Assembly (NCBI GenBank): GCA_963742735.1
Contig: CAVUMN010000001.1
Location: 160,001 to 224,000 of the forward strand
DNA: 64,000 nucleotides
Source: an uncultured Actinomycetes bacterium
Lineage (GTDB): Bacteria > Actinomycetota > UBA4738 > JBBDTT01
Direction of reading: 5' to 3'
Translations under genes and position numbers: made by a program
Part shown: piece by piece, positions 44,235-48,549 of the stretch
Position numbering within the stretch: position 1 is the first letter of the stretch
How the letters are laid out: each line of letters starts with the position of its first letter
Notes under the pieces: model-generated
Told to the model about the DNA's origin: nothing
The model's input: only the letters and a program-made list of their open reading frames with translations
The model's database searches: none

Positions 44235-45424
44235 ATGCGCATCCTCATCCTGGGCGGAGACGGCTACCTGGGCTGGCCGACCGCCATGCACTTCTCGGCC
44301 AAGGGCCATGAGGTGCTGACGATCGACAACTACCTCCGCCGGCGGGCCCACACCGAGGCCGGCAGCGACTCCCTGACGCCGATCCTGGGCTCGCTTCCCG
44401 CCCGCGCGGACGCATGGAAGGAGATCTCCGGCAAGGAGATCGGGGTGGTCGAGGGCGACCTGACCGACTGGCCCACCACCGAGCGCCTGTTCAGGGACTT
44501 CCAGCCGGAGACGATCATGCACTACGGCGCAGATGCCCTCCGCGCCGTGGTCGATGATCAGCCGCGAGCACGCCGTGTTCACGCAGTTCAACAACGTGAT
44601 CAACACGCTGAACGTGCTCTACGCGATGCGCGACATCACCCCCGACGCCCACCTGGTGAAGCTGGGCACCATGGGCGAGTACGGAACGCCCGAACATCGA
44701 CATCGAGGAGGGCTACATCACGATCGAGCACAACGGGCGGTCGGACACCCTGCCCTACCCGAAGCTCCCCCACTCGATGTACCACCTGTCGAAGGTGCAC
44801 GACTCCCACAACATGCACTTCGCCTCGCGCGTATGGGGCGCCCGCACCACCGACCTCAACCAGGGCGTCGTGTACGGCATCCACACCGACCAGACGCAGA
44901 TGGACGAGCGCCTGATGAACCGCTTCGACTACGACGAGTCCTTCGGGACCGCGCTGAACCGGTTCACCCTCCAGGCCGTGATCGGCCACCCGCTGACGGT
45001 CTACGGCAAGGGCCTCCAGACCCGCGGGTACCTCAACATCCTCGACACCATCCAGTGCATCGAGCTGGCCATCAACAACCCGGCCGACGCGGGCGAGATG
45101 CGCGTGTACAACCAGTTCACCGAGCAGTTCACGCTGATGGAGCTCGCCGAGCTGGTCCAGAAGGCCGGCACCGAGTACGGGCTCGAGGTCACGATCGACC
45201 ACATCCCGAACCCGCGGACGGAGAAGGAAGAGCACTACTACAACGCCAAGCACACCAAGCTGCTCGACCTCGGGCTGAAGCCGCACTACCTCTCGGAGAC
45301 GCTCGTCGAGTCGATGTTCGGGGTGATCGAGAAGTACCGGGGCCGGGTGAAGCGAGACCACATCCTCCCGCGCATCTCGTGGACGTCGGGGCTGCGCGAG
45401 CCGGTCGCCGCGGACCTCTCCTAG
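44235..45424 (+). pseudogene. sqdB: UDP-sulfoquinovose synthase (SqdB/SQD1/Agl3), split by two +1 frameshifts (pseudogene or sequence error)
   Basis: [71 protein letters not shown]. The frame shifts at ~44530 and ~44690; the corrected length is 395 aa. AAAGGA RBS. Confidence 0.9.
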
Positions 45425-45445
45425 GGACCGGCTCGAGGGACGCCC

Positions 45446-46492
45446 GTGCTCGCACTCCGGATCATCGCCGGGGTCGCCGCCGTCGCGCTGATCGCGTTCG
45501 TGACGCGCGGCTACGTCCGCCGCACGGTCAGCCGCCTCAACCTGATCCTCACGTGGGTGGTGGGCCTAGGGGCGCTGGCGATGGCCGTGGCGCCCTCGGC
45601 GTTCAACTGGCTCTTCAACCTGTTCAACCTCGAGGCCGGCGGCGGCCGGCGCATGATCGGCGCGCTGTTCCTGGCGGTGCTCGTCCTGCTGTTCGCGGTG
45701 TTCCGCGCCCTCGCCCAGGCCGACGCGAACGAGCGCTCCCTGCGCCTGTTGGTCGAGGGCCTCACCGTCAACTCCTTCGACTGGTCACAGACGAAGAAGC
45801 TCCCGAAGGGTGAGCGGATCGTCGTGGCGATGCCCGCCCACAACGAGGCCGAGAACATCGCCGCGGTGATCCGGGCCATCCCCGATTCGGTGGAGGGCCT
45901 TCGGGTCGTCACGGTGGTCGTCGACGACGCCAGCGAGGACGACACGGCCGAGGTCGCCGAGGCGGCGGGGGCGTATGTGGCCCACCTGCCCATCCAACGG
46001 GGCCAGGGCATGGCCCAGCGAGTCGGCTACGAGATCGGGCTGAAGCTCGGGGCGCGCGTGGTGGTGACCCTGGACTCCGACGGGCAGCACGACCCCGGGG
46101 AGATGCATCTGCTGGTCAAGCCGGTCCTGGCCGACGAGGCCGACATGATCCAGGGCTCGCGCATGCTCGGGGAGTTCGAGAAGGAGTCGCGGTTGCGCCA
46201 CGCCGGCGTGCTGTTCTTCTCCCGCCTGGTCTCGGTGATCACGGGAACGCGGATCACCGACGTGTCGAGCGGCTACCGGGCCATCCGCGCGGACATCCTG
46301 AAGCACCTGGTCCTGGAGCAGGACCAGTTCTCCTCGTCCGAGGTGCTCGTGGAGGGCCTGCGCCAGCACGCCCGCATCAGGGAGGTCCCGATCACGATCC
46401 GGGCCCGGGCCAGCGGCGAGTCCAAGAAGCCGAAGAACCTTCGCTACGGCTGGAACTTCACCAAGGTCATCATCAAGACCTGGCTCCGTTGA
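45446..46492 (+). CDS. DUF2304-like membrane domain fused to a GT2 polyprenyl-phosphate glycosyltransferase
   Basis: Three N-terminal TM helices, then [52 protein letters not shown] (DPM1/PpgS-like). Confidence 0.85.
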
Positions 46493-48549
46493 GCCTCGGG
46501 GCCCTCGCCGGCGTCCTGCTCCTGCTGCTGATCCCGGGGCTCCCGGCGTCGCTCGCCCTCCACCCGCCGGGCCGGATCTCCGTCGTCTCGCGGCTCGCCC
46601 TGGCGCCGGTGTTGGGGGCGGCGCTGGCCGGCGCGGTCGCGTTCCTCCTCGCCCTGCCGGGGTGGCTGTGGCCGGCGCCGTTCCTCGTCCTCGTCGGCGC
46701 CGCCTCGGTGGGGCTGACGGTGTGGGTGGCGCGCCGGGACGGGCTCCGGGCCCACGCCCGGGCCGCGATCAGCGAGACCCGGGCCGACCCCGGGCCCATC
46801 GTGCTGGGGCTCGTGGTCCTCGCCGGGATCGCCGTCGTGCGGCTGTCGTTCGATGCCCGGATCCACTTCTCGGCCGCCTCGGCGTGGCGGTACTGGGCGG
46901 ACGCGGTGGAGATGGCGGACGCCGGAGGGTTCCCCCGGACCACGCTGCAGTACGGCCTGCCGCTCGTCCCGACGGTGAGCAAGGGGTTCCTCAACGCGCT
47001 CAACGCCGGTATGGCCCACGCGATCGGGCGCGAGGCGCTCCCGGCCCTCGGGGCGCTGCTGTGGGTGGGCTCGGTGGGGTTGGCGGGAGCGCTGTGGGCC
47101 CTCGGACGGGAGATCGGACTGCGGTGGACGGCGCCGCTCCTCCCGCTGCTCGTGGTGGTCAACCGCGAGTTCCTGAACCCCGAGATCACCGCCGATCTGG
47201 ACGCGTACCGCGCCGAGACGTTCGGACGCATGCTCGCGTTCGGTGGGCTGGTGCTGGTCGTCCGGGCCCTCCGCGATCGGAGTGGGTGGACCGACGCCGT
47301 GGCCGGCGGCGGGCTGGTCGGCGTCGCCATCGGGATGCATCTGGTTCCGGCGATCGTGGCCGGGATCATCGCGGCCGGGTTCGCTGTGGGCTCACTGATC
47401 CGCGATCCGGCGCGGCGCGCAGCGCTGGTCCGTGGCCTGGCCGCGGGCGGCGTGGCCGTCGCCGTGGCGGGCGCGATCGTCCTGCTTCCCAGGGGTGACG
47501 TCGGGCTCTCAGGGGTTCGTGGCGATCAGGCGTTCGACCGGTTCGGCCCGGCGTTCGATCCCACGCTGTTCGTGAACGCGGGGGTGACCCCCGAGCGGCA
47601 GGCCGCCGAGGGCCCTCGCGACTGGAGGCTCTCCGCCGGCGAGGCCTACCGGGCGTTCGTCGCGACCTCGATCGGCGAGCCGTCCGGGCAGGGCCTGCGC
47701 CCGGCCGAGCCGCCGGAGTCGGTGGGACCGATTGGGGTGTCGATGGCCCTGCTCGGCGTGGTCCTCGCGGCGCTCGGGTTGGCCTGGTTGCCGAGGACCC
47801 TCCGGCCGGCCGCGGTGATTCCCCTGGTCCTGGGGGCGGGGCTGGTGAGCCTCACCTGGTGGTTCTCCCGGCGCTCGAGCCTGTTCATCCCGGCGAACTT
47901 CGGGCTCCGCCGTCTCTACGACTACTCCGCGCTCCCGCTGATCCTCGGCGGGCTCGCGGCGCTCGAGGTCGTGGTGGTGGCCGCGGGCAAGCTTCGCCGC
48001 TGGGCAACCGCCGCGGTGACGGTCGTGCTCGTCCTCGGCCTGTCCGCCTGGCTGCTGCCGGACGCGCGGCTCCGGCCGAGCCGGATCGCGGCCGTGGAGC
48101 CCGTGATCGAGGGGATGCGATGGGTGAACGAGCATCTCCCGTGCGGCGCGTTCATCCTTTCGAACCAACACACGGAGGGCTTCTTCCAGGCGGCGCTCGG
48201 CCGGCCGGCTTTCCTGGAGGGCGCGACCCCGTACCTGCGTCCGGTGGTGCTCGAGGAGGCCATCGACCGCTTCCTCGAGGCGCGGGCGTTCTTCATGGCG
48301 CCGAGCCGGGCGACGTTCCCGGCGCGCAACCTCACGCACGTGGTCGTGATCCGCGGCGGTGGGATCGGCTACTCCGCGACGACCGGCCAGACCGACATCG
48401 CGGCCCTCGACCGGCTGGGCTTCCTGAGGCTGGAGCGCGCGGACGACGCCGTCCGCGTCTACACGGTGACGCTCGCCGGCGCGGGCCAACCTCCCTGGTA
48501 CCCGGGCCGATACCCCGGTTACCACTGCGACCGGAGCCGGTCCCTCTAG
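46489..48549 (+). CDS. GT-C-like polytopic membrane protein
   Basis: About 14 TM; N-terminal PG...LALAP helix pair, WRYWAD loop, C-terminal soluble MRWVNEHLP..ILSN domain. 4-bp overlap with the GT2 gene. Confidence 0.65.
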   Translation: MSLGALAGVLLLLLIPGLPASLALHPPGRISVVSRLALAPVLGAALAGAVAFLLALPGWLWPAPFLVLVGAASVGLTVWVARRDGLRAHARAAISETRADPGPIVLGLVVLAGIAVVRLSFDARIHFSAASAWRYWADAVEMADAGGFPRTTLQYGLPLVPTVSKGFLNALNAGMAHAIGREALPALGALLWVGSVGLAGALWALGREIGLRWTAPLLPLLVVVNREFLNPEITADLDAYRAETFGRMLAFGGLVLVVRALRDRSGWTDAVAGGGLVGVAIGMHLVPAIVAGIIAAGFAVGSLIRDPARRAALVRGLAAGGVAVAVAGAIVLLPRGDVGLSGVRGDQAFDRFGPAFDPTLFVNAGVTPERQAAEGPRDWRLSAGEAYRAFVATSIGEPSGQGLRPAEPPESVGPIGVSMALLGVVLAALGLAWLPRTLRPAAVIPLVLGAGLVSLTWWFSRRSSLFIPANFGLRRLYDYSALPLILGGLAALEVVVVAAGKLRRWATAAVTVVLVLGLSAWLLPDARLRPSRIAAVEPVIEGMRWVNEHLPCGAFILSNQHTEGFFQAALGRPAFLEGATPYLRPVVLEEAIDRFLEARAFFMAPSRATFPARNLTHVVVIRGGGIGYSATTGQTDIAALDRLGFLRLERADDAVRVYTVTLAGAGQPPWYPGRYPGYHCDRSRSL

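Follow-up and report, generated by a model that had tools for sequence, protein, structure and literature searches.

A homologue of uridine diphosphate (UDP)-sulfoquinovose synthase, SqdB, and a family 2 glycosyltransferase (GT2) with an N-terminal DUF2304 domain are encoded side by side in a 64-kb stretch of the genome of an uncultured soil bacterium of the Actinomycetes (G000:C1:160001-224000; hereafter the window, with positions counted from its first nucleotide). Comparison with related genomes established that these two genes form a real conserved unit, beyond chance. A third gene in the window is translationally coupled to the second and encodes a 686-amino acid (aa) membrane protein that is predicted to be a glycosyltransferase of the GT-C type. 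The properties of the three proteins lead us to favor, with modest confidence, a pathway in which UDP-sulfoquinovose would be converted to polyprenyl-phospho-sulfoquinovose, from which a GT-C enzyme would transfer the sugar to an acceptor in the cell envelope. An initial annotation of the window, made from its nucleotide sequence, had proposed a route of this kind.

Gene organization and conservation of the sqdB-GT2 pair

The source assembly (G000) measures 3.08 Mb in 5 contigs with ca. 72% G+C and is 88.9% complete. Gene positions were taken from a list of open reading frames and from gene calls based on codon usage, for which G000 itself served as the training set. Both gave the same coordinates for the three genes, which agreed with the order, common plus-strand orientation and spacing given in the initial annotation. 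The sqdB gene (44235-45424) is followed after a gap of 21 bp by the gene for the 348-aa GT2 fusion protein (45446-46492), which overlaps the gene for the 686-aa protein (46489-48549) by 4 bp (TTGA). Shine-Dalgarno-like sequences precede the start of sqdB (GAAAGGA) and that of the GT2 gene (GAGGGA). No terminator-like site was found between the three genes; a single weak match lies inside the GT2 gene.

The arrangement was surveyed in 40 relatives from the same order. The counts include the unpublished genomes G006, G014, G027, G030, G031 and G039, and unpublished genomes were kept out of all alignments that were folded or searched. Orthologues of sqdB were present in 38 of the 40 relatives and orthologues of the fused GT2 (E ≤ 1e-99) in 36; in each of these 36 genomes the GT2 gene came immediately after sqdB in the same orientation, which for G022 was seen across a contig end. 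Two genomes, G006 and G010, have neither gene, and in G033 the locus stops at a contig edge. The main sqdB of G007 faces a divergent fusion GT2 of 38% identity on the opposite strand. A second, more divergent sqdB copy in G007 has 53% identity and contains one in-frame TGA within the match; it is immediately followed by the gene for a YfhO-like protein, with no GT2 gene between. The positions concerned in this genome are about 9000-12232 of locus L059 (G007:C31) and G007:C1:7407-9311.

The linkage to the third gene is of another kind. Outside the genus there is no linkage of the pair to the specific 686-aa family beyond chance, and the third gene is lineage-specific. Conservation of the linkage in relatives, on which the initial annotation had made its proposal depend, thus held for the two-gene pair and failed for the third gene. 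After the 40 neighborhoods had been gene-called and clustered, downstream genes were counted over 38 loci. In 17 of these loci, the next three genes after the pair include at least one for a GT-C-type protein; three families are represented, namely the 686-aa family, YfhO-like proteins and a family that we call cluster 2. This suggests that the GT-C theme is general though the family varies, and that the other GT-C families may be functionally equivalent to the 686-aa protein.

The DUF2304-GT2 fusion protein

The N-terminus of the GT2 protein matches Pfam DUF2304 (PF10066) over residues 4-104 (window positions 45455-45757, plus strand) with an E-value of 8.4e-7 and a score of 29.7 bits against a cut-off of 25.5, and its catalytic domain matches Glycos_transf_2 (PF00535) over residues 127-288 (E 6e-17). 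Three hydrophobic segments in the N-terminal part (residues 1-19, 31-49 and 71-89) make up the predicted three-helix membrane module, which resembles GacJ and Rv3632. The description of this protein in the initial annotation as a DPM1-like GT2 with a DUF2304-like N-terminus of three transmembrane segments was therefore borne out by both the Pfam domains and the hydrophobic segments. Excerpts of a report on the group A carbohydrate of streptococci (10.1101/180810) place GacJ in the DUF2304 family, describe that GacJ forms a complex with the undecaprenyl-phosphate N-acetylglucosamine (GlcNAc) synthase GacI and stimulates it, state that the GacJ homologue Rv3632 stimulates PpgS, and record fused DUF2304-GT2 forms.

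The best-matching NCBIfam families of the GT2 protein were AglJ, PpgS (second-best, 1.7e-23), dolichyl-phosphate hexose transferase and ArnC, all of which are polyprenyl-phosphate sugar synthases. A profile built from 30 orthologues matched the solved structures of dolichyl-phosphate mannose synthase (5mlz; 2.7e-21) and ArnC (1.3e-12). Residues D210, D212, Q214 and H215 are invariant in the 30 orthologues (D-x-D-G-Q-H) and align with the catalytic DADLQH motif of 5mlz. On these similarities, the GT2 protein is most likely of the polyprenyl-phosphate sugar synthase type, while falling outside every characterized equivalog.

Related loci in other families of the phylum

The fusion protein was also searched for in a sample of 301 genomes of the phylum (counts include the unpublished genomes G041, G057, G085, G152, G202, G252 and G264). 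Of the 23 genomes sampled from the order, 22 encode a full-length homologue; at E ≤ 1e-40, full-length homologues also occurred in two further families (20/20 and 20/22 genomes) and in 2 genomes of a third. In the two further families sqdB was found in 20/20 and 21/22 genomes. The distance between the sqdB and GT2 genes was no more than 5 kb in 12 out of 18 genomes belonging to one family and in both genomes of another. Eighty named loci were retrieved with the GT2 profile, and 71 of them have sqdB within the 8-kb flank; of the other nine, seven have less than 3 kb of upstream sequence. The closest named loci come from uncultured 'Actinomycetota bacterium' metagenome-assembled genomes (MAGs) such as HRbin12 and KatS3mg013, and the loci in the tier of 40-45% identity are labelled Solirubrobacterales, Gaiellales or Thermoleophilia.

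Three genomes from other Actinomycetota families encode a protein of 712-771 aa at 0.3-0.8 kb from sqdB (G155, L144 2743-6866; G142, L145 4061-8035; G292, L146 2794-6965). These proteins consist of a long N-terminal region and a C-terminal GT2 domain of the same clade as the fusion protein of the window (profile matches of 1e-72 to 1e-76). The N-terminal region matches the Pfam GT-C family PMT in G142 (7.6e-8) and weakly in G155 (9e-4); the corresponding region in G292 gave no PMT match. In G155 and G142 a gene for a GtrA flippase is located between the fusion gene and sqdB. Such loci suggest that a GT-C enzyme and a flippase act together with GT2 proteins of this clade beside sqdB, and they provide independent support of the gene fusion (Rosetta-stone) type. 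The conserved pair in 36 of 40 relatives, the Solirubrobacterales and Gaiellales loci and the GT-C-GT2 fusions together lend comparative support to the earlier suggestion that a GT2 of the polyprenyl-phosphate type, rather than SqdX or SqdC/SqdD, receives the UDP-sulfoquinovose.

The 686-aa protein and other GT-C candidates

The 686-aa protein gave no match in Pfam, NCBIfam or the PDB sequences, and a profile of its family searched against PDB sequences returned nothing at E ≤ 10. Its known homologues number only 35, none of which is named or has a Pfam domain. Its fold was modeled with AlphaFold2 (pLDDT 90.9, pTM 0.92). A Foldseek search with this model gave 14 matches at E ≤ 1e-3, all of them GT-C proteins (DPY19, STT3 and AftA) with TM-scores of 0.38-0.47; AftD, PimE, ArnT, AglB and PglB fell just short of the threshold. 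The modeled structure thus has the GT-C fold, as the initial annotation had anticipated, and the number of hydrophobic segments is ca. 12 by a crude hydropathy count instead of the ca. 14 mentioned there. Residues R134, Y135, D138 and E141 are invariant across 29 homologues, and D138 and E141 would be candidates for the catalytic acidic residue that GT-C enzymes have in an extracytoplasmic loop close to the first helices.

Three further membrane proteins encoded downstream in the window are related to the families that follow the pair elsewhere. The 774-aa protein encoded directly after the 686-aa gene on the minus strand (48546-50870) has ca. 14 hydrophobic segments and a Pfam YfhO match (8e-9) that is limited to 55 C-terminal residues; it is a candidate further GT-C, and elsewhere members of its family are encoded after the sqdB-GT2 pair. 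A 761-aa YfhO-like paralogue (53533-55818, minus strand) scores below the Pfam cut-off (4.2e-5) and clusters with the 774-aa protein. A 567-aa protein (57784-59487, plus strand) was assigned by clustering to cluster 2, the family that most often follows the pair elsewhere. The model of another cluster 2 member (L023:11279-13285; pLDDT 89.7) gave 21 Foldseek matches at E ≤ 1e-3, all GT-C proteins (STT3, PglB, AglB, AftA, DPY19 and ALG9). Profile-profile comparison of the 686-aa, cluster 2 and YfhO-like families showed no significant relation (probabilities of 0.2, 35 and 10%), and the fold was used instead.

Identity of SqdB

The SqdB homologue was compared with the curated equivalog model NF041015. 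Of the three frame pieces of the window gene, the first matches model positions 1-96 with 86 bits, the second 100-151 with 76.5 bits and the third 152-383 with 274 bits. Intact orthologues in G001, G003 and G017 cover model positions 1-384 with E-values of 2e-144 to 2e-149 and scores of 481-498 bits, and the runner-up family scores just 42-45 bits. The motifs YHLSK and GTMGEYG occur in the window protein and in the orthologues, and we take them to be the Y-H-x-x-K signature and the catalytic Thr of plant SQD1. A protein encoded in the sqdB region of Sinorhizobium meliloti, with a database record as a member of the epimerase/dehydratase family, is ca. 40% identical over the same span and has a glycosyl transferase gene next to it; this pair is presumably sqdB followed by a gene in the sqdD position. 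With S. meliloti SqdD as the query, a tblastn search of the source genome gave nothing at E ≤ 1e-3. Records of Pseudonocardia, Sinorhizobium, Agrobacterium and Rhodococcus, reached via plasmid-borne sqdB homologues, yielded no SqdX.

Another sqdB homologue (59% identity) was encountered on plasmid NZ_AP018921.1 of Pseudonocardia autotrophica (L060, 7210-13486), where it is divergent from a gene for an unrelated 416-aa GT2 protein that gave no tblastn match to the fusion GT2 at E ≤ 1e-3. Its flanks encode a pyridoxal phosphate-dependent enzyme of the cysteine synthase family, a major facilitator superfamily transporter, a GNAT protein and a MurJ-like flippase. This plasmid locus may represent another use of sulfoquinovose outside sulfoquinovosyl diacylglycerol (SQDG).

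Frameshifts in sqdB

The initial annotation treated sqdB as one open gene and overlooked that it occupies three frames as assembled: frame 0 (44235-44529), +1 (44533-44691) and +2 (44693-45424), with a total span of 1190 nt that is no multiple of 3. Two single extra C bases on the plus strand, each causing a +1 shift, account for this. The first is located at 44530; its removal restores the sequence HYGEMPSAPW, which matches the orthologues, and it is missing from G001 and from soil contigs of runs X2 and X3. The second is one C of a CCC run at 44689-44691 and is missing from G001 and from all four soil runs, of which the contigs have one base less at 44688-44693. One soil contig of 297 nt spans both sites and aligns over 287 bases with 3 mismatches and 2 gaps. 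The soil data consist of contigs only, cover in each run a fraction of 0.06-0.16 of the 4.6-kb stretch and are too thin beyond ca. 46.7 kb; these contigs are near-identical sequences that give no read depth for the source strain.

Similar interruptions are frequent throughout the assembly. A frame-transition detector reported 221 frameshift-like events in the source genome (72 per Mb) compared to 16 per Mb in 626 kb of loci from relatives, with 29 pairs of adjacent events that are at most 400 nt apart, many of them +1/+1 as in sqdB. Out of five sampled events, three split one Pfam family, i.e. a class A penicillin-binding protein (C4:949065-950962, L148), penicillin amidase (C4:441376-444016, L149) and PurH (C4:1340782-1342318, L151), one corresponded to two adjacent genes (pyrD and pyrF) and one was ambiguous. 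Since the detector is heuristic and two of the five sampled events were of the latter kinds, the figure of 221 overstates the true number. In a 2-contig assembly of another member of the group (G036), the fusion GT2 itself is split by a frameshift near residue 300 (L050 8655-9608 and contig positions 628242-628388), which suggests a further case of insertion or deletion errors in the long-read MAGs of this group.

Selection on the gene was estimated from the ratio of non-synonymous to synonymous substitution rates (dN/dS) relative to G001. The outer two pieces of sqdB gave 0.13 and 0.15, and of the codon changes in the middle piece 12 are synonymous and 2 non-synonymous; the corresponding dN/dS values of the GT2 and GT-C genes are 0.23 and 0.54. 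Because both sites are intact in G001 and in the soil contigs, the event rate is high genome-wide, housekeeping genes are split in the same way and dN/dS is low, the two extra bases are most likely assembly errors, and we therefore take sqdB to be functional in the organism. Alternatively, sqdB could be a true and recent pseudogene in the source strain, in which case the module would be dead there, whatever its relatives do. Such decay could account for the occurrence of two independent +1 shifts only 160 nt or less apart in a single gene, for the fact that they are the sole frameshift-like events detected across the 64-kb window, and for the position of the first insertion outside any homopolymer. 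Set against the many closely spaced events elsewhere in the assembly, the similarly split purH and penicillin-binding protein genes, the intact near-identical sequences and the low dN/dS kept in all three pieces, we consider loss of the gene unlikely. Given that the assembly is prone to such errors, pseudogene calls in this genome need read support.

Neighboring genes

Divergently from sqdB, the minus strand carries a polysaccharide operon (35659-44055). The gene directly upstream of sqdB (42181-44055) encodes a Wzc-type protein with Wzz and P-loop domains, and behind it follow genes for a family 4 glycosyltransferase (GT4), a GNAT protein, a 459-aa membrane protein, a polysaccharide deacetylase, a second GT4 and a WecA-like phosphotransferase. 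The two GT4 proteins resemble exopolysaccharide (EPS)-type enzymes, with stp2/EpsE as best matches far below the cut-offs. The initial annotation named this a Wzc/Wzy operon. The Wzc assignment is confirmed by the domain matches; the 459-aa protein (38590-39969) that had been called Wzy has no family match. In the order, a Wzc gene borders sqdB in 10 loci, and 7 loci have a fuller polysaccharide gene set.

Farther from sqdB, the minus-strand genes at 30271-35039 encode an ImuB-like Y-family polymerase, a DnaE2-type polymerase III alpha subunit and a DUF6504 protein, which probably form a damage-inducible mutagenesis cassette. Genes of this cassette (clusters 6 and 7) also flank sqdB in many relatives. 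In 8 loci of the order (L024, L033, L037, L040, L043, L047, L050 and L054), the gene immediately upstream of sqdB, in the same orientation, encodes a class-V aminotransferase (cysteine desulfurase-like, Aminotran_5), which is absent from the window.

On the other side, positions 46489-63937 form an island of seven large proteins, six of which are polytopic membrane proteins: the 686-aa GT-C, the 774- and 761-aa YfhO-like proteins, a 648-aa protein that resembles DUF6541/DUF6077 membrane proteins (a lead from the ESM Atlas), the 567-aa cluster 2 protein and a 726-aa protein with a weak DUF6541 match. The seventh, of 889 aa, does not look like a GT-C; it has a single anchor and the appearance of a secreted carbohydrate-active protein of the DUF6259/CBM_4_9/GH129 type (again an ESM Atlas lead). 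Among the GT-C genes there is also a minus-strand gene (59484-60914) for a sulfatase-family protein, with matches to Pfam Sulfatase (4e-47) and SGSH_C. A sulfatase would leave the C-S bond of sulfoquinovose uncut.

Proposed role of the module and alternative explanations

The pathway that we favor starts from what is observed at these loci: the order and spacing of the genes, the domain content of the GT2 protein, the GT-C fold of the third protein and the strong conservation of the pair. SqdB would make UDP-sulfoquinovose from UDP-glucose and sulfite in the cytoplasm, and the membrane-anchored GT2 would load the sulfoquinovose onto polyprenyl monophosphate to give polyprenyl-phospho-sulfoquinovose, with the fused DUF2304 module in the helper role of GacJ and Rv3632. 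The lipid-linked sugar would then be flipped, and a GT-C enzyme at the outer face would use it to decorate an envelope polymer or protein. In the source organism this part would fall to the 686-aa protein, whose gene is translationally coupled to that of the GT2, and perhaps also to the neighboring YfhO-like and cluster 2 GT-Cs. The donor sugar of the GT2, its polyprenyl-phosphate acceptor, the flipping step and the final acceptor are predictions from homology and gene context. One speculation is that the divergent Wzc/WecA operon makes the acceptor.

Several observations weigh against this pathway. The sqdB gene is broken as assembled, and its intact orthologues, at 481-498 bits, stay under the curated NF041015 cut-off of 575 bits, which only 1 of 14 control genomes passes. 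The GT2 protein scores far below the equivalog cut-offs of its relatives (105 against 325 bits for AglJ, 83 against 370 for PpgS and 37 against 529 for ArnC), and therefore its donor sugar cannot be read from homology. The 686-aa family occurs in 9 of the 40 relatives, including matches in the unpublished G030 and G039, and adjoins the pair only in the same-genus G001. In 21 of the 38 loci no GT-C gene follows the pair and thiamine genes on the other strand are found instead, and in a family in which all 20 genomes have both genes, sqdB is near the GT2 gene in only 3. No GtrA (PF04138) or UPF0104 (PF03706) flippase was found in the 88.9%-complete source genome, and an SqdX-type GT4 may be encoded elsewhere in it.

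Some of these observations would fit a division of labor in which the GT2 uses an ordinary donor such as UDP-glucose or UDP-GlcNAc while UDP-sulfoquinovose goes to a soluble glycosyltransferase, either a GT4 of the divergent operon or an SqdX-like enzyme encoded elsewhere that makes the classical sulfolipid, and in which the adjacency of the genes reflects a shared envelope regulon. The scores below the cut-off of every characterized equivalog would allow for such a donor, the divergent operon offers two GT4 genes and a WecA-like initiator, and its Wzc gene is the neighbor of sqdB in 10 loci. However, the GT2 is a constant partner, while no more than 7-10 of the 38 loci have the GT4 operon beside the pair, and the GT4s of this operon look like EPS-type enzymes and not like glycolipid synthases. 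Moreover, sqdB and the GT2 gene are both absent from G006 and G010, the GT-C-GT2 fusions and GtrA adjoin sqdB in loci that lack such a GT4 operon, and the SqdD query had no match in the source genome. We therefore regard this explanation as quite unlikely.

GT2-family enzymes that glycosylate diacylglycerol exist, and the GT2 could thus be a new kind of sulfolipid synthase that attaches sulfoquinovose directly to diacylglycerol or another non-polyprenyl lipid, with no GT-C step. The 21 loci in which the pair has no GT-C gene behind it and the lack of a dedicated GtrA or UPF0104 flippase match in the source genome would be in line with this. It is difficult to reconcile with the relatives of the GT2, since the best matches by family and by structure are all polyprenyl-phosphate sugar synthases, and the DUF2304 module is not known in any role but that of a partner to such enzymes. 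In other genomes, moreover, a GT-C domain is joined to a GT2 of this clade next to sqdB, and in the window the GT2 gene is translationally coupled to a GT-C gene, so that a direct sulfolipid synthase appears improbable. That the SqdB-like protein acts on a nucleotide sugar as a short-chain dehydrogenase of some other specificity, so that a different sugar is loaded by the module, as its scores under the cut-off and the single control genome above it might suggest, is highly improbable in view of the match to the whole NF041015 model at about 1e-145 with the next family at 42-45 bits, the similarity to the S. meliloti protein over the same span and the presence of both presumed SQD1 motifs.

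If the route via polyprenyl-phospho-sulfoquinovose operates in widespread soil Actinomycetota, UDP-sulfoquinovose would gain a new role in biosynthesis and the known lipid-linked sugars a new member, and the route would provide the cell with a permanently anionic, phosphate-free surface decoration. Sulfoquinovose is made on a very large scale and is seen as a product of phototrophs, in the form of SQDG, and as a constituent of the N-glycans of a few archaea. The proposed route would add a non-phototrophic source of substrate for sulfoglycolytic soil bacteria. A bolder and rather doubtful extension is that sulfoquinovose is a common surface modification in abundant non-photosynthetic soil Actinomycetota (the source order, Solirubrobacterales and Gaiellales), produced via polyprenyl-phospho-sulfoquinovose and several GT-C paralogues. 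Some targets may then be proteins, since the nearest structural relatives of the GT-Cs are the protein-modifying STT3/PglB/AglB and DPY19. This would imply bacterial protein sulfoquinovosylation and a large unrecognized source of sulfoquinovose in the soil sulfur cycle. To the general picture of a two-gene core with a GT-C theme, the source window mainly adds the frameshift caveat and a lineage-specific third gene.

Comparison with known systems

The first enzyme is shared with the SQDG route, in which SqdB acts with SqdX in cyanobacteria, SQD1 with SQD2 in plants, and SqdB with SqdD and SqdC in Rhodobacter and Sinorhizobium. In that route the partner is a lipid glycosyltransferase of family GT4 or GT8, whereas the conserved partner found here is a polyprenyl-phosphate-type GT2. 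Use of UDP-sulfoquinovose for a surface glycan instead of a sulfolipid has a parallel in Agl3 of Sulfolobus acidocaldarius. In the Agl3 system the glycan is assembled on a dolichol pyrophosphate carrier, from which AglB transfers it en bloc, and we know of no description of a monophosphate-linked sulfoquinovose carrier for that system. The Agl3 system is archaeal, unlike the source bacterium, and the sugar is beta-linked in its N-glycan, according to excerpts of a report (PMC11407970). A full-text literature search on sulfoquinovose combined with polyprenyl, undecaprenyl, dolichol and Actinobacteria glycosyltransferases returned only papers on the archaeal N-glycan and on plastids or sulfolipid, and, at the level of abstracts, no bacterial lipid-carrier route, in keeping with the initial annotation, which knew of no bacterial description of the pathway.

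The closest parallel in mechanism is the GacI/GacJ/GacK/GacL system, which adds the GlcNAc side chain to the group A carbohydrate of Streptococcus pyogenes. As outlined in excerpts of the report cited above (10.1101/180810), it likewise combines a GT2 that forms a polyprenyl-monophosphate sugar with a DUF2304 helper and an outer-face GT-C, GacL. Its donor is UDP-GlcNAc, whereas the nucleotide-sugar gene linked to the source locus is sqdB. Furthermore, no GacK-like or GtrA-like flippase match was found in the source genome, unlike in the Gac system, and the GT-C is a member of an unnamed family that shows no similarity in sequence to known GT-Cs. PpgS (Rv3631) and Rv3632 of Mycobacterium tuberculosis provide, in the same excerpts (10.1101/180810), an actinobacterial example of a GT2 polyprenyl-phospho-sugar synthase with a DUF2304 helper. 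The source GT2 differs in that it scores 83 bits against the PpgS cut-off of 370, has the helper fused and would use a different donor. Its GT-C is also unrelated by sequence to that of the mycobacterial galactosamine-arabinogalactan system, which we take to be Rv3779.

The GtrA/GtrB/Gtr* and CsbB/YfhO systems similarly consist of an inner-face GT2, a small flippase and a polytopic GT-C at the outer face. YfhO acts with CsbB, and the YfhO C-terminal signature in two neighboring source genes as well as the GtrA genes in related loci are reminiscent of these systems. They move glucose or GlcNAc, however; the source genome has no GtrA match, and the YfhO similarity is confined to ca. 55 C-terminal residues. 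Three-component glycosylation via lipid carriers is thus already well known, and what is new in the route proposed here is the sugar and the families of GT-C proteins.

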